DNA from: Candidatus Saccharimonadota bacterium
GTDB taxonomy: Bacteria; Patescibacteriota; Saccharimonadia; Saccharimonadales; UBA10212
Direction of reading: 5' to 3'
DNA: 64,000 bases
Assembly (NCBI GenBank): GCA_022841445.1
Contig: JALHRM010000001.1
Location: 387,777-451,776, forward strand
Shown: piece by piece, positions 3,326-17,118 of the stretch
How positions within the stretch are numbered: position 1 is the first letter of the stretch
Layout of the letters: each line of letters begins with the position of its first letter
Position numbers and translations under genes: made by a program
Notes under the pieces: generated by a model
Told to the model about the DNA's origin: nothing
What the model saw: the letters and a program-made list of their open reading frames with translations, nothing else
Databases searched by the model: none

Positions 3326-3354
3326 TTTACTTCACTTCGCTTTGTGACTAGAAT
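3326..3354 (+). promoter_or_regulatory. sigma70-type promoter of the 3388 ORF
   Basis: TTTACT (3326-3331), a 17-nt spacer and TAGAAT (3349-3354). An AGGAG SD lies 8 nt before the ATG at 3388. Confidence 0.55.
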
Positions 3355-3796: not shown

Positions 3797-4780
3797 ATGG
3801 CTCGTTCTACCAAAAGGCATATATTAATAGCGTCATCTGAATATGACAGGCGCACGGTTCTACCTGTGGTCGAAAAACTTAAAAAACAAGGCTGCCAAGT
3901 CACTTACTACAAAAGCGATCTTGTCACCATGCCCACCAAGAAACTCAACGTACAAGTTGGAGACTATACCGACTTAATCAGTTACGACGAAACTGACATA
4001 AACGGAATTAATGTAGACGCGGCCTGGTATCGACGGCCGTCTAATTTTGTATATGAGGGCTTAACAGAGATTCAGCAGGTGCAAGTGGCTGATAATGTCG
4101 ATCGTTTGCAAAGAGCCATATGGCAATCTATAGCCGAACACAAATGGATTAATGATCCTATGCGGATGAATTTTGCCGATGATAAATTCACCCAACTACG
4201 CCTTGCCAGTAAATTAGGATTCAAAGTACCAAAAACGGTCATTAGCAATGATGGTCAGGTGTTGCTAGAGGCTTTCCCAAAAGCTGATGCTGTCTTCAAG
4301 CTGCCAAGTGGTACGATCAGCATGAATGGTGAAGCAAGAGAAATTTACACTAATGTTTTGAGCCAGAAAAAACTTATTGATCTGGTTGAAACTGGCAAAA
4401 AACTACTGCCTGGCATATATCAGGAAAGAATCCCTAAGGCCAAAGAGTGGCGGATAACAGTTGTTGGTGAGCAGGTATTTCCGGCGGCTATTTATACTGA
4501 TGTCACCGCCAAAGATGATTGGCGTAAACTTCAAACTACCGATGCTGTGCGTTTCAAAAAAGAGCAATTTGATCAAGCTCTTACCGGCAAACTTGTCACT
4601 TTCTTGAAGAAATTAAATCTTCGATATGGTGCATTTGATCTGATTGAAGCACCAAACGGAGAAATATATTTTTTGGAAATTAATCCTAACGGCCAATACC
4701 AGTGGCTAGAAGACGAGCTAGGCATGCCTATATCGAGTGCGATTGCCGATGAATTGGCCCGCATTGCTAACGCCAATTGA
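3797..4780 (+). CDS. ATP-grasp enzyme resembling MvdC/MvdD (MdnB/MdnC)-type ribosomal-peptide maturases
   Basis: Motifs seen are KRHILIASSEYDRRTVLPVVEKL (pre-ATP-grasp), AAWYRRPSNF, KFTQLRLASKLGFKVPKTVISND and EINPNGQYQWLEDELGMPISSAIADEL. Confidence 0.7.
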   Translation: MARSTKRHILIASSEYDRRTVLPVVEKLKKQGCQVTYYKSDLVTMPTKKLNVQVGDYTDLISYDETDINGINVDAAWYRRPSNFVYEGLTEIQQVQVADNVDRLQRAIWQSIAEHKWINDPMRMNFADDKFTQLRLASKLGFKVPKTVISNDGQVLLEAFPKADAVFKLPSGTISMNGEAREIYTNVLSQKKLIDLVETGKKLLPGIYQERIPKAKEWRITVVGEQVFPAAIYTDVTAKDDWRKLQTTDAVRFKKEQFDQALTGKLVTFLKKLNLRYGAFDLIEAPNGEIYFLEINPNGQYQWLEDELGMPISSAIADELARIANAN

Positions 4781-4807
4781 TGGTATTGTTGGCTTAATCG
4801 AGTCTCT

Positions 4808-5395
4808 GTGCTACAAAGTGTTATTGCTTTTGCTATTTCACGAGGTTACGCTATAGCTATGTCCTCTCCGGAAACCCAAAAGTCAAAATACTTCAAAGAA
4901 CAGTTCGATGATGAAGAAGTGAAGTTGGTTTTTCGCAAGCATCCGGTCGTAATGCGTAAGGGAATCGTCTATGCTAGCCTCGGTTTGCTAGCCGGAACAA
5001 TCCCGGCAGTTTTTAATCCGACATTTACTATTTACTTTGGTGGCTTAGCGGTAGGACTGGTGCTATCAGCACTCATTATGTTGCCATTTTGGATACGTTG
5101 GTACTTTAGTGTTTATATACTAACCAACCAGCGATTTATCCAGCAAACTAAAAGCATGCTCCAGAGTAGCGTCGTCGATATTGGTCTCGACCAAATTCAG
5201 ATGATTAACTACCGAGTTTCTGGGTTTCAAGAAACACTGCTGGGATTTGGTACAATTGTCGTACAGACATTCGTTGGTGAGCTTACCATCCATGATGTGC
5301 ACCATCCGGCTAAGTTACAGAAAGAAATGGTGGGAATACTAAGAGATATCGGTGTGCATCCGGTACAAAGAATGTCGACCGAACAGAGCGAATAG
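4808..5395 (+). CDS. membrane protein with a bacterial PH (bPH_2, YdbS/YdbT-like) domain
   Basis: FRKHPVVMRKG is followed by two TM helices, then YILTNQRFIQ...GFGTIVVQT. The likely true start is the ATG at 4859 (MSSPETQ). Confidence 0.6.
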   Translation: MLQSVIAFAISRGYAIAMSSPETQKSKYFKEQFDDEEVKLVFRKHPVVMRKGIVYASLGLLAGTIPAVFNPTFTIYFGGLAVGLVLSALIMLPFWIRWYFSVYILTNQRFIQQTKSMLQSSVVDIGLDQIQMINYRVSGFQETLLGFGTIVVQTFVGELTIHDVHHPAKLQKEMVGILRDIGVHPVQRMSTEQSE

Positions 5396-6833: not shown

Positions 6834-7373
6834 TTATTTCGGGGTGAACCTTAAGGCTTTTGGCGCCAATGTCATTAGAGCCAGGCTACCATCGCAAATC
6901 AATAGGTATATGGGCAGTGATGCAGCGAAAACTGACCATACAGAAATCGATAACAAACTACATATTGCGGCCAATGCGCACAGCACCCAATGAGCGGTAT
7001 TTTCAGTATGGGGGTAGAGGTATGTTTTCTTCAAAGTCGGGATATACCCACAAAATCCCGCGAATATATTAAAATATAGAGCCACTTCTGGGTTGCTAGT
7101 TACAATCCAGCCAACAACGCCTACTGCAGATGCTAAAAGACAAAAAATGTCTAACTTGCTCGCGCCTCCGACGCCCCTTTTTAGTGACATCAAGAAAATG
7201 ACCAAAGTCCCGATTGTATATGCGATTATTATTCCCGAGGCTTCTTTTCCGCCAGAGGCAATGTAACTCACAGACGCAATCACCCCTATTACCGTCCAAA
7301 TTCCAAATGTAGATCTATGGGGTTTAGTTTTTCCTTTTAATATTCCTTTGATATAGGGGTAGTAGGATAGCAA
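6834..7373 (-). CDS. polytopic membrane protein. The N-terminus is apparently separated by a frameshift in a T7 run.
   Basis: It has 5-6 hydrophobic helices. The long ORF starts only at a TTG (7373). A leaderless-type ATG at 7420 (MDEVRVF) is one frame off across 7398-7404. Confidence 0.55.
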   Translation of the reverse strand: MLSYYPYIKGILKGKTKPHRSTFGIWTVIGVIASVSYIASGGKEASGIIIAYTIGTLVIFLMSLKRGVGGASKLDIFCLLASAVGVVGWIVTSNPEVALYFNIFAGFCGYIPTLKKTYLYPHTENTAHWVLCALAAICSLLSISVWSVFAASLPIYLLICDGSLALMTLAPKALRFTPK

Positions 7374-7847: not shown

Positions 7848-8384
7848 ATGTCAGTTCATAGTTTGCAAAAGCCCCCCGGCGGTATAGATATTCCAGAAGC
7901 CGAATTACCGATATTGGAGCTCGCGACGGATTTGATTAAGGTTCGGGATCGTTATCAGCTCGGGGCTGCTGCATTGGGAGTGGCGGGTGCATTAGGAATG
8001 GTGAGTAATCCAACGCTAAATCAGCCTCCCGAACTCGCAATATTCACACCAGATGGAGAATTGATCACAGCGTATGGTACTTTTCAGTGGCGCTGGTGCT
8101 TACAACTTAACATGGTATCCGGTAGGCCGGGAGTGAGATGGACGGATGTAATACAGCGTATTATTGATGGTCCGAGAGATGATGAAAGAGCAGAGCAATT
8201 AGCCGACATGCTCGCTGCTGGAGTTGACGGTACTTATGAAATTGAGTCGGGTAAACCACTGTCTGTACAAAAGCGAAAATTCCTATATTGCGGACTAGTC
8301 GCCCTTGCAGTTGCTCAGCGCGGTCATGGAAACGAACCAATCTGGCCGGAGGCGTTTGCGGGTCAAGCGGTAGGTGGACGATAA
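7848..8384 (+). CDS. hypothetical protein (178 aa)
   Basis: A long ORF with no competing frame. No motif was recognised. Confidence 0.5.
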   Translation: MSVHSLQKPPGGIDIPEAELPILELATDLIKVRDRYQLGAAALGVAGALGMVSNPTLNQPPELAIFTPDGELITAYGTFQWRWCLQLNMVSGRPGVRWTDVIQRIIDGPRDDERAEQLADMLAAGVDGTYEIESGKPLSVQKRKFLYCGLVALAVAQRGHGNEPIWPEAFAGQAVGGR

Positions 8385-8396
8385 ACCACAGGTGTT

Positions 8397-9251
8397 GTGT
8401 GGAAAATTTTTATTATGAGCGAAACCGATTTTTTTGATGTGCCTGTAAGTTCGATTCGATCTGGGCTAAAGACGGCGATGCATGCGTTTTGTAAATCCGG
8501 AGGTATTTCTGAGGCTGTGGCGGCTCAAAGTAACGAGATGACCAGAGCTGGCAGACCAGGGGCAATGCTGCTACAGGCCGGTAAATTCATCATCGATGCA
8601 ACACTTGCCGCTATGGACGCTGCCATTACTCCCAACCAACCACTCCCTGACGAAGTATATGCCAGGCGGCTTGCAGCGACGTATACCGTTGACGAAGTCG
8701 CTCAAACGGCTGCTGGCGATGGTTCATTAAATAAGCTTTTTGGCGGATTCCCAATGCTTGAGGGTTGCAGCCCCGCGCAGCGGATATATTTTATGCAAAG
8801 AATCGCTTTTGATTTGGCAACAATCGGTTCGGCTCCGATACAAGAAGTTAGTGTTGTAGCAGGCGGCGCAGTACGTATGCTACAGCGTGCCGGTGTTGAT
8901 GGTTCGGTAGAAGGCATTGTGTCTCGAAGCCATGGCTTATTAGATTCCGCCAAGCTACACAAGGATCTGGCTGCAAAAGTGTTTAGTGTACTTGGGACTC
9001 CCTATTTTTCAGATGAATGTTACAGGATTCTAGATCATCGTGACGGTGGAATAAAGGTTGATTTTAGCGAAGAAGTGAAAGCGGTTTTTGAAGCGAACAA
9101 AGGTCGGGGTTGCCCGGCAGGGGGTGTCAGGCTTGGGGATGGACACCCATCAACGCTACTGCATATGTACTGGGAAAGAATAAATGCTTTTCTATTCCAA
9201 CCCGGCCACACCACTGATTTGCCAATTACTACATTGCCCCATACAATCTAA
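8397..9251 (+). CDS. hypothetical protein (284 aa; start uncertain, GTG 8397 or ATG 8415)
   Basis: A long ORF following 7848-8384 on the same strand. No motif was recognised. Confidence 0.5.
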   Translation: MWKIFIMSETDFFDVPVSSIRSGLKTAMHAFCKSGGISEAVAAQSNEMTRAGRPGAMLLQAGKFIIDATLAAMDAAITPNQPLPDEVYARRLAATYTVDEVAQTAAGDGSLNKLFGGFPMLEGCSPAQRIYFMQRIAFDLATIGSAPIQEVSVVAGGAVRMLQRAGVDGSVEGIVSRSHGLLDSAKLHKDLAAKVFSVLGTPYFSDECYRILDHRDGGIKVDFSEEVKAVFEANKGRGCPAGGVRLGDGHPSTLLHMYWERINAFLFQPGHTTDLPITTLPHTI

Positions 9252-9365
9252 GGATACATAAGCAATATCATAAGATTGTGCGTTGTAAAATAGTGTTGTG
9301 TAGTATTGACCCAAAATGCTTGTCCGTGACATTATCCTTTGTACAACAAAGTAGGAGGGTAACAT

Positions 9366-9938
9366 ATGAGACGAAAGTCTATGAATGGTCCGCTTGTTCG
9401 TGCGGTTGGGGTAATATCCGCAGTTATGCTGCTAGTAACCAGTGCGACGTTCGCGGCATTGCAAAGCCAGCAGGCATTGCTTACAGGCAACACCATCGAA
9501 AGTGCCACAGCTGATTTGCGTATAGGCACATCGGCAACGAGTTTTGGAGCAACTAGGGCGGGGTTTGATTTTGAAGATATTGTTCCGGGTGGTTCGTCAC
9601 AGCCAGCTGATGGGCATGTATTTTATCTAAAGAACTATGGCAGCGCCGCGCTTAATCTGCGCATGTCAGTCGGATCCGTACCGACTAATCCTTCGGCGGT
9701 AGACTTGTCCAAAGTTTACGTTCATATGACAAGAGTCGACAGTGGTACAGTGTTTAATTCGACACTGCAAGACCTGACCAACAGCTACGCAACCAATGGG
9801 ATGGCCGTTACCGAACCTATCGCTCCAGGTGCGGTTGTGCAATATAAACTGCGTGCTTCAATGGCGATTGACGCGTTCAGTGGCTCGGGAGCGAGCATCG
9901 GCGCGGTAGACTTTGTCTTTAGTGGTATTGCTCCGTAG
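9366..9938 (+). CDS. TasA/camelysin-like secreted protein with a SipW-dependent-type signal peptide
   Basis: A GGAGG SD is present. The N-terminus is MRRKSMNGPLVRAVGVISAVMLLVTSATFAALQSQQALLTGNTIESATADLRIG, a signal followed by an A-x-F-A..GN-x-f..a..l motif. The body is beta-rich. It lies directly upstream of a SipW-type peptidase. Confidence 0.55.
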   Translation: MRRKSMNGPLVRAVGVISAVMLLVTSATFAALQSQQALLTGNTIESATADLRIGTSATSFGATRAGFDFEDIVPGGSSQPADGHVFYLKNYGSAALNLRMSVGSVPTNPSAVDLSKVYVHMTRVDSGTVFNSTLQDLTNSYATNGMAVTEPIAPGAVVQYKLRASMAIDAFSGSGASIGAVDFVFSGIAP

Positions 9939-9950
9939 TTAAGGAAAGCA

Positions 9951-10505
9951 GTGAGATATTCGCTCGCCGAGTTACCAAAATCCAGCAAACGCTACTATGT
10001 TTTGGCTTGGTGTTCAGCGGCGCTACTTTTGATTGCAGCAGTACTGTTGGTGTTTTTATGGCGGTCTCAGTCGGTACGAATTTACAGCGTGCAAAGCGCC
10101 AGTATGGAGCCATACATACAAGTCGGCGACGCAGTCTTGGTACGTCCATTTAATCAAGCCATCATCAAGTCGGGTGATGTTGTGACATACAAGGATCCAA
10201 GAGATTCACAACTACTCATTACACATCGCGTTATAAGTTTCGATAGATCTACCAGTATGGTGACGGTAAAAGGCGACGCAAACCTTATTCACGATAAGCC
10301 CCTACATGCTTCACTTATCGTCGGGAAAGTGTCAGCTGTTACGCCAAAGGCAGGGTATATAATTGATGTGTTGCGAACCCCCGCCGGTTTGCTGGTGGGC
10401 ATCTACGTGCCAGCGATGATTGTACTCATTAGTGAAATACGACGGCTCGGTCAGTACTATTCTCGAGCAACTTACCATCTAAACTATAGACTCAGGAACA
10501 GTTAA
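9951..10505 (+). CDS. signal peptidase I, SipW/Sec11 (archaeal-eukaryal) type
   Basis: It has an N-terminal TM segment, the catalytic Ser in SASMEPYIQVGDAVLV, the His in ITHRVISF, VKGDANLIHD, and a C-terminal TM segment. Confidence 0.85.
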   Translation: MRYSLAELPKSSKRYYVLAWCSAALLLIAAVLLVFLWRSQSVRIYSVQSASMEPYIQVGDAVLVRPFNQAIIKSGDVVTYKDPRDSQLLITHRVISFDRSTSMVTVKGDANLIHDKPLHASLIVGKVSAVTPKAGYIIDVLRTPAGLLVGIYVPAMIVLISEIRRLGQYYSRATYHLNYRLRNS

Positions 10506-10916: not shown

Positions 10917-11861
10917 GTGGCGATTCTTAAAAAATATAGGAAATCCATTATGTTAGTTCTTGGTTTACTGCTTTTGCTTGTACTAGCAATTTTTTTTGTT
11001 GGTTTAAGTTCGGCAGACCGCACCGTATTATTCAACAGCTCAAAGTCCTTGCAAGTTGGGTCTGATACGCGTACATATAGGCTATATGATAAGGGTGGTG
11101 ATGCTGACTCACTAATTATCGCATTGCACGGACTAGGCGGCGATAGCCGACAAATTGCCTACTTTTCCGGGCTGCATAATGTTGTTCCGAGAGGTTTTGT
11201 GGTCGTCTATCCTGACGCTATTAAACCTGAGCGCCAAGGCGTTCGCCCAGGGTGGAATTCGGGTTTTTGCTGTGGTAGCGGCTGGGTACAAGGTACAGAC
11301 GATGTTGCCTATATCAGCAAACTAATTGACACACTTACAAATCAATATGGCATTGATAAAGCCAAAGTTTATATAACTGGCTTCTCTAGCGGGGCGATGA
11401 TGGCGCACCGTATAGCAGTAGAAATCCCAAATAAAATTGCTGGCTTCGCAGCTGTTTCGGGCAGCATTGGCACCAAAGGCAAAGAACTCAAGCCTACAGT
11501 AAGCGTTCCGGCATATTTAATTCATGGTGAAGCGGATACAGTAGTTGCGTTTAACGGTGGACAAGGCAGCAGTGACCCTGACTTTGTATGGACAGGCTTT
11601 GCCGATGGCTTGTCCGCTTGGGCAAACGTGAACGGCTGCAGTAACGAATCTCAGGTAAAAAGCGGAGTTATTACTCGAACAACGTATGAGCAATGTTCGG
11701 TTGAACTTATCGCCGACACCTACGAAGGTCTCGGTCATCGCTGGCCGGATTGGCGACTGGGTAATTTCTGGCATCAGCAACCCGCCAGCAGCAAATCAAT
11801 CGTAAACTTCTTCAATAGTCTTTCAGAAAATTTAGATAAGCCGGTTGGCAAAGACTCATAA
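10917..11861 (+). CDS. secreted PHB-depolymerase/LpqC-family esterase
   Basis: It has a signal anchor (IMLVLGLLLLLVLAIFFVGL), ALHGLGGD, WNSGFCCG and the nucleophile elbow GFSSGAMMAH. Confidence 0.75.
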   Translation: MAILKKYRKSIMLVLGLLLLLVLAIFFVGLSSADRTVLFNSSKSLQVGSDTRTYRLYDKGGDADSLIIALHGLGGDSRQIAYFSGLHNVVPRGFVVVYPDAIKPERQGVRPGWNSGFCCGSGWVQGTDDVAYISKLIDTLTNQYGIDKAKVYITGFSSGAMMAHRIAVEIPNKIAGFAAVSGSIGTKGKELKPTVSVPAYLIHGEADTVVAFNGGQGSSDPDFVWTGFADGLSAWANVNGCSNESQVKSGVITRTTYEQCSVELIADTYEGLGHRWPDWRLGNFWHQQPASSKSIVNFFNSLSENLDKPVGKDS

Positions 11862-14861: not shown

Positions 14862-15989
14862 CTACGTCAGAAGTTCGATAAGTTTGTCGGCAGCTATGGC
14901 ATCTTTGACTTCGCGAGCAACTCGGCGTCCAACGCTCATGTTTTCGCCGTATAAATAACCTGAGTAGGGAGTAAACATTGTGCCTGGACTTCCGGGAATA
15001 CGCATGCTCACATCAAAAACTTTGAATTCTTCTTTAGGTGGACCAGCGCTGACAGCACCTTGGAGCGCAAATGGTCCGATGATTCCTGGCGGGTAGTGCT
15101 TTTGAGTGGCTGCTACAAATTTTTCACCGGCATCAAAGGCTTGTTCAAGTAGCGACTCTTTGATTGTGACCGACTGATGACCGTTTTCAATGTAACTTGG
15201 TCGGACGTATTTGAGAACTTCTTCTTGTTCGGGAGCAGTCAATCGCAATAAGCCATCGAGGTTGGTTTGACGGCGCGTGTCAGTACCAAGCAGTTCTAGT
15301 TCGCCGGTTAGTGGGGAATAGAAGAAGTTCAAGTTAAGCTGCGGTCCTAGTATGAATTCTTCGATCACGGCGATATCGAGCGACTGTTGGGTAATGGTGC
15401 CTGCGCTAACCATTTCTTGTGAGCGAATTTTGTATTCTTCGAAGCTATTTACCAAAAAGAATGCTCGTTCATATCCACGCGCGGCCTCACTTGCTTTGAC
15501 AATGACTAAGCGGTCAATGTCTTCAGGCTTTTCAAATTGCAGTGGAATCGAAAGTCCACCCTCCTGCAGTAAAAAGTACTGATTTCTCTCTTCATCACGT
15601 TCTTCTTTACGTACCAGTTCGCGGCTGCCGATGATTGGTACTAAAAAGTCGTTTTCAATCTCATCGAAGTTACAGTACACCCAAAAATAGCGACTATGTA
15701 CGAAGACAGCGTTTAAGTCTTGAAGCTGTTTTTGAATTTCGGGTTTTACGATGTCTCGAAAGTGGTCGACGTAAATAACATGGTCGACGCAACCACGGCC
15801 ATCGCGTGACTTAAAGTACTGGCTATAGGTTTTGTCGCGGCCTTTCTGGGCAACGATGACAGTTTCGAAACCTTCGGCTTTTGCTCCGCGAGCAACATCG
15901 AGTCCGCTATGGCCACCAAGGCTGGCGATACGAATGTTTTTAGGGTCATAACTTTTCAGAACTTTAGCAACATTATCACGTGAAATCAT
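14862..15989 (-). CDS. purP: PurP-family ATP-grasp (archaeal-type FAICAR synthetase-like), paralogue 2
   Basis: IASLGGHSGLDVARGAKAEGFETVIV, FYSPLTGELELLGTDTRRQTN, IGPFALQ and RIPGSPG align with M. jannaschii PurP as recalled. The start MISRDN at 15989 follows the upstream stop. Confidence 0.8.
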   Translation of the reverse strand: MISRDNVAKVLKSYDPKNIRIASLGGHSGLDVARGAKAEGFETVIVAQKGRDKTYSQYFKSRDGRGCVDHVIYVDHFRDIVKPEIQKQLQDLNAVFVHSRYFWVYCNFDEIENDFLVPIIGSRELVRKEERDEERNQYFLLQEGGLSIPLQFEKPEDIDRLVIVKASEAARGYERAFFLVNSFEEYKIRSQEMVSAGTITQQSLDIAVIEEFILGPQLNLNFFYSPLTGELELLGTDTRRQTNLDGLLRLTAPEQEEVLKYVRPSYIENGHQSVTIKESLLEQAFDAGEKFVAATQKHYPPGIIGPFALQGAVSAGPPKEEFKVFDVSMRIPGSPGTMFTPYSGYLYGENMSVGRRVAREVKDAIAADKLIELLT

Positions 15990-15990
15990 A

Positions 15991-16992
15991 TTAGTTGAAA
16001 ATCCTTTCCAGGGCGTTTTGTTCTTCAGCGAGGCGGATTTCCATGGCAATGCGCCGGCCAGTGCTCATCGGTTTGTTATAGCGTAGGTCGCTGTATGGTG
16101 AACCATGGATGTACGGGTTGGTGCCAGCCACGATACGAGCAGATATCTCGAAGACGAAGAAGTCTAAATCTGGAGTGACAATGGTTTCGAGACAGAATGG
16201 CCCAAACAATCCACGACTATCCCATTTTTTGGATGCGGCGATTACTTGCTCACCCATTTCAAAAATTTCCGGTAGCAGAGATTCACGGACAACAAGCGGA
16301 GTGTTACCCATGATGTTGTAGGACGTTTCGATGTTTAAGTCTAATTGGTCTTTGGCAGAAATTCGCCCGATAGAGTCAACATTACTCTCGTAACGACGGT
16401 CAAAACCCATCAGTTCCAGTTCTTCGGTGAGTGGGGAATAAAAGTAATGGATGTAAACTGGCGCACCGACAATATATTCTTGGATGATGTATTTTTGGTC
16501 AGGGTGTTGTTTGATTTTTTCTTCAAATTCTTTTTGATTATGTGCCAAGAAGTAACCTTTGCCACCCTGAGCGCCATAGAATTTGATGATTACTGACGTA
16601 TCGATATCAGATGGTTTCTCAAAGATTCTTGGTAATTTTAGTCCTGCCTCTGCGAGCCACTGCCGCTGTTTTTTGCGGTCGGTTTCCCAGGCGAGTACTT
16701 TCTTATTGCCAAAATATGGGGTTTTGAGTTCGTCAATCTCAGCTAGGCTAAATGCGTTAACAAAAGAAGCATGCGGAATCAGCACAGCATTCATAGCGGC
16801 TAGTTCATCGTCACGGTCTTTAGCGTCAGCAAACTTATCGACGGCGATTATATGATCAGCAACCCGAAAAGATTCGTAGGGTTTGAGTCGTTTCTTTTCA
16901 GCAATCAAAACAGTCTCAAAACCTTCATCCCGACCACCCTTCAAGATTTGCAGCGCGCTATGACTCCCCAACGTACAAATTTTGTGTTTCAC
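15991..16992 (-). CDS. purP: PurP-family ATP-grasp (archaeal-type FAICAR synthetase-like), paralogue 1
   Basis: ICTLGSHSALQILKGGRDEGFETVLI, IHYFYSPLTEELELMGFDRRYESNVD, VVRESLLPEIFEMGE, FGPFCLE and FEISARIVAGTN are present. The GTG at 16992 has a GAGAGGTG SD. Confidence 0.85.
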   Translation of the reverse strand: MKHKICTLGSHSALQILKGGRDEGFETVLIAEKKRLKPYESFRVADHIIAVDKFADAKDRDDELAAMNAVLIPHASFVNAFSLAEIDELKTPYFGNKKVLAWETDRKKQRQWLAEAGLKLPRIFEKPSDIDTSVIIKFYGAQGGKGYFLAHNQKEFEEKIKQHPDQKYIIQEYIVGAPVYIHYFYSPLTEELELMGFDRRYESNVDSIGRISAKDQLDLNIETSYNIMGNTPLVVRESLLPEIFEMGEQVIAASKKWDSRGLFGPFCLETIVTPDLDFFVFEISARIVAGTNPYIHGSPYSDLRYNKPMSTGRRIAMEIRLAEEQNALERIFN

Positions 16993-17118
16993 TTTGAACA
17001 CCTCTCATTTAAGAAGTTATATTGCTACTAAGTATACCAGTAAAACTATATTAACAGAGACAAAAATTAATGGTTGGCTCATTCTTGGCAATAATTTTGT
17101 TAGAATGGGTCTTGATGT

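Follow-up and report, generated by a model that had tools for sequence, protein, structure and literature searches.

TasA of Bacillus subtilis and the archaeal protein AbpA are secreted beta-sandwich proteins that assemble by donor-strand insertion. In the tapA–sipW–tasA locus the gene for TasA (structure 8AUR, Pfam family PF12389) is accompanied by that for a signal peptidase of the endoplasmic reticulum (ER)/archaeal type and by tapA; TapA has an N-terminus that imitates the donor strand of TasA and starts off assembly (PMC9674648, PMC10151520). AbpA of Pyrobaculum calidifontis (7UEG), a small jelly-roll of 180 residues in the filament, carries its N-terminal donor strand after a class I signal peptide, and its gene belongs to an eight-gene operon that includes the TapA-like AbpB (PMC9245690). 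We have analysed a 64-kb stretch of DNA from a Candidatus Saccharimonadota bacterium, hereafter the window, in which two adjoining genes on the + strand appear to form a compact member of this class. The first (9366..9938, ATG start) encodes a TasA-like secreted beta-sandwich protein of 190 residues, here called the subunit. The second (9951..10505, GTG start) encodes a signal peptidase I of 184 residues, of the ER/archaeal type and the SipW class.

How does this locus compare with the two described systems? Like tapA–sipW–tasA, it sets a secreted beta-sandwich subunit beside an ER/archaeal-type peptidase that has N- and C-terminal membrane segments. Its subunit carries the cleavage motif T-[WF]-A|A-[FL], a conserved N-terminal segment that aligns with the TasA donor strand, and strands marked by PGD/PGG and F-x-L-x-N-x-G. 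Unlike TasA, whose mature form has 234 residues, the mature subunit has only ~160, and it is without both the TasA insertions and the C-terminal tail 239–261 that makes the second subunit interface. The gene order is reversed, with the subunit ahead of the peptidase, and tapA is absent. With AbpA the subunit shares the small beta-sandwich, the putative N-terminal donor strand after a class I signal peptide and a tie to TasA that is seen at the profile or structure level only. The difference lies in the peptidase gene. The sequence-only reading of this DNA had credited archaea, as well as Bacillus, with such subunit–peptidase pairs; for AbpA this is inaccurate, since those who described it report no dedicated peptidase gene in its vicinity (PMC9245690).

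We identify the locus, with considerable confidence, as encoding a subunit of the TasA class together with an ER-type peptidase dedicated to it. We also think it probable, on balance, that the two genes are a self-contained operon for an extracellular TasA-class fibre, donor-strand polymerisation included. Sec would export the 190-residue protein. The adjoining membrane-embedded peptidase, of Ser-His-Asp type, would then cut after T-F-A, between A30 and A31, and so free the conserved N-terminal extension ALQSQQALLTGNT. This extension would serve as the donor strand, entering the beta-sandwich of the next subunit to give a head-to-tail polymer with no chaperone. We infer, then, that the subunits polymerise by strand donation, that they are located at the cell surface, and that they have a role in host-cell attachment or in a biofilm matrix; host attachment in particular is speculation.

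A conserved pair of genes

Is the pairing of subunit and peptidase kept in other genomes? A scan of the GTDB species representatives gave 54 loci, nearly all in metagenome-assembled genomes (MAGs) of Saccharibacteria/Saccharimonadales, which agrees with the Candidate Phyla Radiation (CPR) host that had been proposed from the letters. In 47 of them the gene immediately 3′ of the subunit gene, in the same orientation, encodes a peptidase orthologue. Four more are cut off by a contig edge, so that the pair is syntenic in 47 of the 50 species where this is testable, as the earlier reading had led one to expect. The three remaining loci (L028, L039 and L060) share one alternative context, with a helicase upstream and an NYN-like gene (YAFIDSQNLNLGTQRMGWKLDWRKF) in the peptidase's place, ~600 nt downstream of the subunit. 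The subunit of L060 is a fragment of which the first ~35 codons are left. The pairing is retained in P0214, a distant member of the family and the most TasA-like, in a different genomic setting.

The genes that flank the pair vary among loci, and no further neighbour from the window travels with it. For these reasons the conserved unit, as gene order defines it, is one of two genes. The idea of a third conserved gene did not hold: the small genes after the peptidase in the window, in L003 and in L061 are mutually unrelated. Both open reading frames (ORFs) are true genes rather than chance ORFs; the subunit family is large and the pair is kept across species.

Two observations count against a self-contained unit. 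Loci L028 and L039 hold an intact subunit gene without an adjoining peptidase, and a TapA-like nucleator, an anchor or a cell-wall sorting signal was found neither in the window nor in most loci. Within the window, too, a search for a second protein with both a signal and the donor motif found none.

Four loci (L013, L014, L032 and L057) contain a Saccharibacteria-type pair in MAGs that are labelled Burkholderiaceae, Limnocylindrales, Verrucomicrobiia and Dormiibacterota. These contigs are probably binning contaminants.

Relationship of the subunit to TasA

To what family does the subunit belong? A set of 5.8 billion proteins yielded 276 matches, all of ~190 residues and none with a Pfam domain; the few named members among them are Saccharibacteria. 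A separate search gave 405 representatives at 50% identity. Among 120 homologues listed, not one has a Pfam domain or an informative name. Searched by sequence and by profile, the PDB gave no meaningful match to the subunit.

We scanned 134 divergent members of the family against NCBIfam and Pfam. The top library matches included two signal classes: TIGR04088, the SipW-dependent-type signal peptide, was the commonest NCBIfam match (27 members, best E 3.4e-4), and TIGR04089 was matched by six. Choice-of-anchor D came second among the NCBIfam matches, with ten members, and the TasA model NF046066 was matched by two. The commonest Pfam match was PF12389, Peptidase_M73, the TasA/camelysin family (eight members, best E 3.1e-4). 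Taken singly, each of the matches to TIGR04088, TIGR04089, TasA and PF12389 is weak.

The two families were also compared directly, by aligning profiles. The TasA query sequence was confirmed against 8AUR and the TasA-family alignment comprised 46 members. Against this alignment hhalign placed the subunit family, represented by a diverse profile (A3), at a probability of 94.1% (E 1.3e-7, 66 columns). The link needed that diversity, since a shallower alignment (A1) reached a probability of only 15.6%. The score was 58.6 with full profiles, 36.4 with mature regions only and 28.8 (probability 17%) with cores only; the best of 20 column shuffles scored 15.8.

Reciprocal searches with hidden Markov models (HMMs), in which matches were counted at E<1e-3 and reversed sequences served as the control, point the same way. 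The control gave 0 matches in every search. The family HMM found 89 of 120 TasA-family proteins (best 37.4 bits) and the TasA HMM found 47 of 270 family members (best 34.5 bits). With signal peptides removed these figures became 39 of 117 (best 26.3 bits) and 4 of 242 (best 21.4 bits), and with cores only 27 of 117 (best 18.7 bits) and 2 of 242 (best 14.7 bits). The alignments are collinear throughout: GGTWAAF of the TasA family stands against GVTFAAL of the subunit, followed by the next strand segment, PGD against PGG, FxLxNxGS against FYLKNxGT, the helix TLxDL against sLqsL, and the last strand.

Several results weigh against a kinship with TasA. Neither Pfam nor NCBIfam has a family into which the subunit falls. 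For the window protein there is no match to PF12389 or NF046066 at E<=1 and none to TIGR04088 or TIGR04089, and the family consensus, searched against Pfam and NCBIfam, matches none of these four either. The signal and cleavage region contributes about 40% of the hhalign score. Considering the library matches of the divergent members, hhalign and the reciprocal HMM searches together, we nevertheless conclude that the subunit, as far as such comparisons can tell, is a distant and compact TasA homologue, that the homology extends beyond the signal peptide, and that current curated models miss it. Profile-level homology is what linked AbpA to TasA, and the subunit family has it as well.

Signal peptide, N-terminal extension and fold

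Residues 1–30 of the subunit (9366..9455, + strand) make up a signal peptide with a basic n-region, a hydrophobic core at about residues 13–27 and G-V-T-F-A at its end. The predicted cleavage site is A30|A31 (TFA|AL), and G-V-T-F-A fits the −3/−1 rule. This cleavage motif is the best-conserved part of the family. The information content of residues 28–30 is 3.69 bits per position across the 134 members, 99% of which have A30 and 86% T28. The segment TSATFAALQSQQALLTGNTIESATADLRIG, to which the earlier reading had drawn attention, is present in the subunit and represents the family at its most conserved.

The mature protein begins with the N-terminal extension ALQSQQALLTGNTIESATADLR (residues 31–52; 9456..9521, + strand), a candidate donor strand and linker. 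Among the same members the extension is conserved at 2.52 bits, against 1.78 bits for the core. In the hhalign alignment A31 is paired with A28 of TasA, where the mature protein begins in 8AUR, and residues 31–43 fall opposite the TasA donor strand 28–38; the extension as a whole spans the TasA donor strand and linker, 28–47 (PMC9674648). GVTFA|ALQSQ aligns with GGTWA|AFNDI of TasA, so that both the T-[WFY]-A motif and the conserved mature-side segment are present. From this alignment we infer that actual cleavage is at A30|A31. The proposal that the signal is of the SipW-dependent type stands as regards the cleavage motif and the mature segment; it fails as regards TIGR04088, which leaves the window protein unmatched. 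A type IV pilin with a class III signal was also considered and rejected: the hydrophobic segment precedes the cleavage motif, there is no G|F...E5, and the S26 neighbour is not a prepilin peptidase.

The remainder of the protein (residues 53–190; 9522..9935, + strand) is the beta-sandwich core, with one helix, the PGG and F-Y-L-K-N-x-G strands and a conserved last strand, D-F-V-F-S-G. Two AlphaFold models bear out the description of the protein as beta-rich, just as its coordinates, 12 nt ahead of the peptidase, proved exact. The full-length model, with a predicted local distance difference test (pLDDT) score of 84.5, has an N-terminal helix followed by the beta-sandwich, and it packs residues 36–46 as strands onto the protein's own sheet. 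In the model of residues 31–190, made from a deeper alignment (pLDDT 95.2, predicted template-modelling score 0.85), the first 20 mature residues have no secondary structure by DSSP.

Which known structures does this fold resemble? A Foldseek search of the PDB with the mature model returned subunits of donor-strand-exchange filaments as 23 of the 25 top matches, in five independent classes: chaperone–usher pilins, the Sulfolobus 0406 thread, Pyrodictium cannulae, the environmental fibril TLP-1b and AbpA. The full-length model gave a similar picture. The best of these folds (the pilins FimA, FimG and PapE and others, the 0406 thread, CanA and TLP-1) are immunoglobulin (Ig)-like and receive the completing strand from a neighbour, as is proposed for the subunit; they have no sequence relationship to it, and their template-modelling (TM) scores are 0.35–0.5. 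The locus also differs from chaperone–usher systems in that it has no chaperone or usher genes and its host is monoderm. TLP-1 offers a further likeness, in that its AlphaFold monomer leaves the N-terminal strand unstructured (PMC11494351). The TLP-1b match is not one to a CPR protein, the structure having been modelled on a Flavobacteriales protein.

AbpA ranked ninth in both fold searches, at a probability of 0.77–0.91 and a weak TM score of 0.32–0.35. The donor-strand reading is weakened here on three counts. The fold matches are all weak (best E 2.7e-3 with the mature model), TasA itself is outside the top 50 PDB matches in both searches, and the redundancy of chaperone–usher pilins in the PDB swells the count of 23 in 25. 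For these reasons the modelled fold is suggestive of, and agrees with, strand donation but does not decide the matter. The proposed relation to TasA and camelysin holds up, with caveats: hhalign, the reciprocal HMM searches, the library matches of divergent members and the rank of AbpA speak for it, while the window protein reaches no curated threshold and TasA does not appear among the leading folds. Neither of the outcomes named beforehand as fatal to the earlier reading, an unrelated fold or a lack of synteny, emerged.

Two divergent members of the family carry more than the subunit itself. In P0225 (301 residues) a C-terminal Ig-like domain region follows it, and in P0266 (234 residues) a C-terminal Pro/Thr-rich tail. 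These modules suggest surface display or adhesin-like tips.

Peptidases fused to a copy of the subunit motif

If the N-terminal extension of the subunit is a donor strand, does the same motif occur elsewhere? In five relatives the peptidase has a C-terminal extension of ~130–240 residues: L054 (5206–6441), L055 (2116–3237), L058 (4428–5540), L061 (4510–5526, the same as L062) and the protein P0395, which is 44% identical to the window peptidase. Such an extension is absent from ~50 other loci and from the window, where the peptidase ends 21 residues past its C-terminal membrane segment. Beyond the second membrane segment the extensions follow one layout: a basic linker leads to a third hydrophobic segment and an AxA-type site, after which come a copy of the subunit motif and then an unrelated domain. 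The copy corresponds to the first ~13 mature residues of the cognate subunit. Three of the unrelated domains are Lamin Tail Domains (the one in L054 scores 36.3 bits, over the Pfam cut-off) and two are N/S/T-rich tails. The topology of the extension is compatible with its export and its cleavage by the very peptidase to which it is fused.

The copy of the motif tracks the subunit of its own genome. In L058 the subunit has ALQSQATLTNSSI and the extension ALSSQATLTNSSI, and both carry the TNSSI variant, which is rare in the family. These extensions are like TapA in consisting of a signal-like segment, a copy of the subunit's strand motif and an unrelated domain. They are unlike it in that the module is fused to the C-terminus of the peptidase instead of having a gene of its own, and that a Lamin Tail Domain or N/S/T-rich tail stands where TapA has a macroglobulin-like domain. 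We regard the fusions as indirect support, by analogy, for strand donation, independent of the other lines of evidence.

They also bring up the most serious alternative. The segment shared by the subunit and the extensions could be an element that the peptidase recognises in its substrates, and not a donor strand; the subunit, though related to TasA and processed by its dedicated peptidase, would then remain a monomer in its secreted or surface-bound form, as a wall coat, an adhesin or a camelysin-like protein. Polymerisation is, after all, read from sequence and models, and TasA, too, forms a stable monomer (PMC9674648). In the full-length model, moreover, residues 36–46 pack onto the protein's own sheet, and the window holds no nucleator or anchor gene. 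On the other side, the nearest solved folds are nearly all polymerising donor-strand subunits, and the extension is conserved beyond the core over 22 residues, far more than a peptidase normally reads. Type I signal peptidases follow the −3/−1 rule and read little of the mature side. A signal peptide and an N-terminal mimic set upon an unrelated domain are, furthermore, the means by which TapA complements TasA (PMC9674648, PMC10151520). We judge a monomeric subunit to be unlikely, though still deserving of serious attention, and retain donor-strand polymerisation as the favoured reading.

Locus L054 also has two subunit genes in tandem before the peptidase (3974–5185). The second (4572–5185) is split over two frames, which could mark a pseudogene or an error of sequencing; it could also encode a minor subunit.

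A probably dedicated peptidase of the ER type

The ORF at 9951–10505 had been read as a Sec11/SipW-type S26 peptidase with the motifs SASMEP, THRV and KGDAN and with membrane segments at both ends, and every part of this is upheld. It passes the cut-off of NCBIfam TIGR02228, the archaeal-type signal peptidase I (83.3 bits, cut-off 51.85), and that of Pfam Peptidase_S26 (34.1 bits, cut-off 22.9). With the Bacillus SipW equivalog NF046067 it reaches 57.5 bits against a cut-off of 190, and so, by this score, it is of the SipW class and no SipW orthologue. Hydropathy windows place the N-terminal membrane segment at about residues 17–37 (9999..10061, + strand) and the C-terminal one at about residues 143–163 (10377..10439, + strand).

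The only matches of the peptidase in a search of PDB sequences were human SEC11C and SEC11A, which are the catalytic subunits of the ER signal peptidase. SASMEP (residues 49–54) aligns with SGSMEP, HRV of THRV (91–94) with HRV, and KGDANLIHD, which begins with KGDAN (107–111), with KGDNNxVDD. The catalytic region (10101..10295, + strand) thus contains Ser51, His92, Asp109 and Asp115, all four of them invariant in the alignment of orthologues. By this alignment Ser-His(-Asp) residues replace the bacterial Ser-Lys dyad in the predicted catalysis. Histidine in place of lysine is the mark of the ER/archaeal type, and separates S26B from S26A peptidases.

Is this enzyme the general signal peptidase of the cell, whose adjacency to an abundant secreted protein is conserved but functionally loose? 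No LepB-type enzyme was found in the 64-kb window, which tells against a dedicated role, although a stretch of this length is a poor guide to the whole genome. The subunit persists without the neighbouring peptidase in two species, so that another peptidase may be able to process it. Yet adjacency persists in 47 of 50 species though the flanks change, and cultivated Saccharibacteria have a LepB-type enzyme (K03100) elsewhere. Southlakia epibionticum has one, beside parB and an LCP gene, and neither TasA nor camelysin appears in its annotation tables; in TM7x there are two genes for signal peptidase I. The peptidase also diverges much faster than the subunit, with best non-identical relatives at 42–44% identity against 67%, which is not what one usually sees in an essential housekeeping enzyme. 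Compared within the same three genomes, identity is ~54–60% for the subunit and 36–37% for the peptidase. Finally, five relatives fuse the peptidase to a copy of the subunit's N-terminal motif. The result for LepB in the window, Southlakia, TM7x and the fast divergence, taken together, favour a dedicated accessory peptidase and suggest that the subunit–peptidase pair is not universal in the phylum. That the enzyme is the cell's general peptidase we hold to be improbable.

Least probable is that the subunit is no TasA homologue but one of the generic Ig-like domains of surface proteins (choice-of-anchor D, DUF1573, CARDB or PapD-like), convergent with TasA in no more than a signal peptide and the common strand motif PGx...FxLxNxG: choice-of-anchor D does give the sole library match of the window protein (E 0.013, sub-threshold) besides those of the ten members, the ASH/PapD-like domain of CEP192 ranks third and sixth in the fold searches, and the core-only hhalign probability is low, but core-only HMM matches persist against none in the reversed control, the alignments with the TasA family are collinear up to the helix and the last strand, and the TasA-specific signal and cleavage motif with a SipW-class neighbour is absent from generic domains.

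Expression signals and neighbouring genes

A ribosome-binding site AGGAGG (9353..9358, + strand), read from the sequence, lies 7 nt ahead of the subunit ATG. Further upstream, the weak sigma-70-like match TTGACC-18-CATTAT (9306–9335) is a candidate promoter; matches in a promoter scan of this region were not above those in shuffled sequence (2 found, 2.9 expected), and for that reason we make no claim for it beyond that of a candidate. The 12-nt gap between the genes (9939–9950) contains a second ribosome-binding site, AAGGAAAG (9941..9948, + strand), ahead of the peptidase gene. No terminator was found between the subunit and peptidase genes, and their co-transcription is therefore probable, to judge from these signals. 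Paralogues of the subunit were sought in the window and none was found; it is single copy there.

Immediately 5′ of the pair, at 7848–9251 (+ strand), are two ORFs of 178 and 284 residues that have no Pfam or NCBIfam match and no homologue in any of 60 related loci. The 8–10 kb bin is a local maximum of guanine-plus-cytosine (GC) content (0.483), and its GC skew of 0.117 is the highest within the first 48 kb. The region 7848–9251 may be a variable or acquired segment.

A multi-pass membrane protein of 179 residues is encoded at 6834–7373 (− strand), and homologues occur in nine related loci. In the eight listed these lie ~0.5–2.3 kb downstream of the pair (one upstream) and on its strand, for example at 3326–3943 in L039 and 6861–7448 in L024; the window's own gene is 2 kb upstream and on the opposite strand. 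The association with the pair is loose.

Close 3′ of the pair, at 10917–11861 (+ strand), is a gene for a predicted secreted alpha/beta hydrolase of the polyhydroxybutyrate-depolymerase/esterase type (NF050058 124.6 bits, under the cut-off of 150), which is not kept beside the pair in other loci. Further on, at 14862–17001 (− strand), two tandem and slightly overlapping genes encode proteins of 395 and 336 residues, each with DUF1246 and DUF1297. We take this to be the PurP-type ATP-grasp architecture, known best from archaeal purine synthesis. Such a duplicated pair is unusual for a reduced CPR genome.

Implications

How new is this locus? Among surface filaments it is type IV pili that have so far been linked to the way in which Saccharibacteria find host bacteria and hold on to them. 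Homologues of PF12389 in Patescibacteria were already noted by Wang et al. in 2022 (PMC9245690), and apart from one sentence in that paper our literature search found none that ties SipW/TasA-like fibres to Saccharibacteria. As TasA homologues at the Pfam level had thus been recorded in the phylum, our claim is a modest one: the locus extends the known TasA/AbpA class and introduces no new principle.

We also put forward, tentatively, a wider model. Saccharibacteria would make a minimal, chaperone-free donor-strand fibre from a ~160-residue subunit and a dedicated peptidase alone, as a second class of surface filament beside type IV pili. In some lineages a self-cleavable signal and donor-strand mimic fused to the peptidase, with a Lamin Tail Domain, would prime the fibre or anchor it at the membrane. 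A fused peptidase–nucleator of this kind, if true, has not been described for any TasA system, and the fusions with a copy of the subunit motif would constitute a natural experiment on fibre priming.

The TasA/AbpA class appears to reach a compact two-gene form here, in which a subunit of ~160 residues and a peptidase may suffice. If the reading is correct, these ultrasmall episymbionts would possess a second conserved fibre system, missed by annotation, and with it a candidate for attachment, aggregation and matrix formation.

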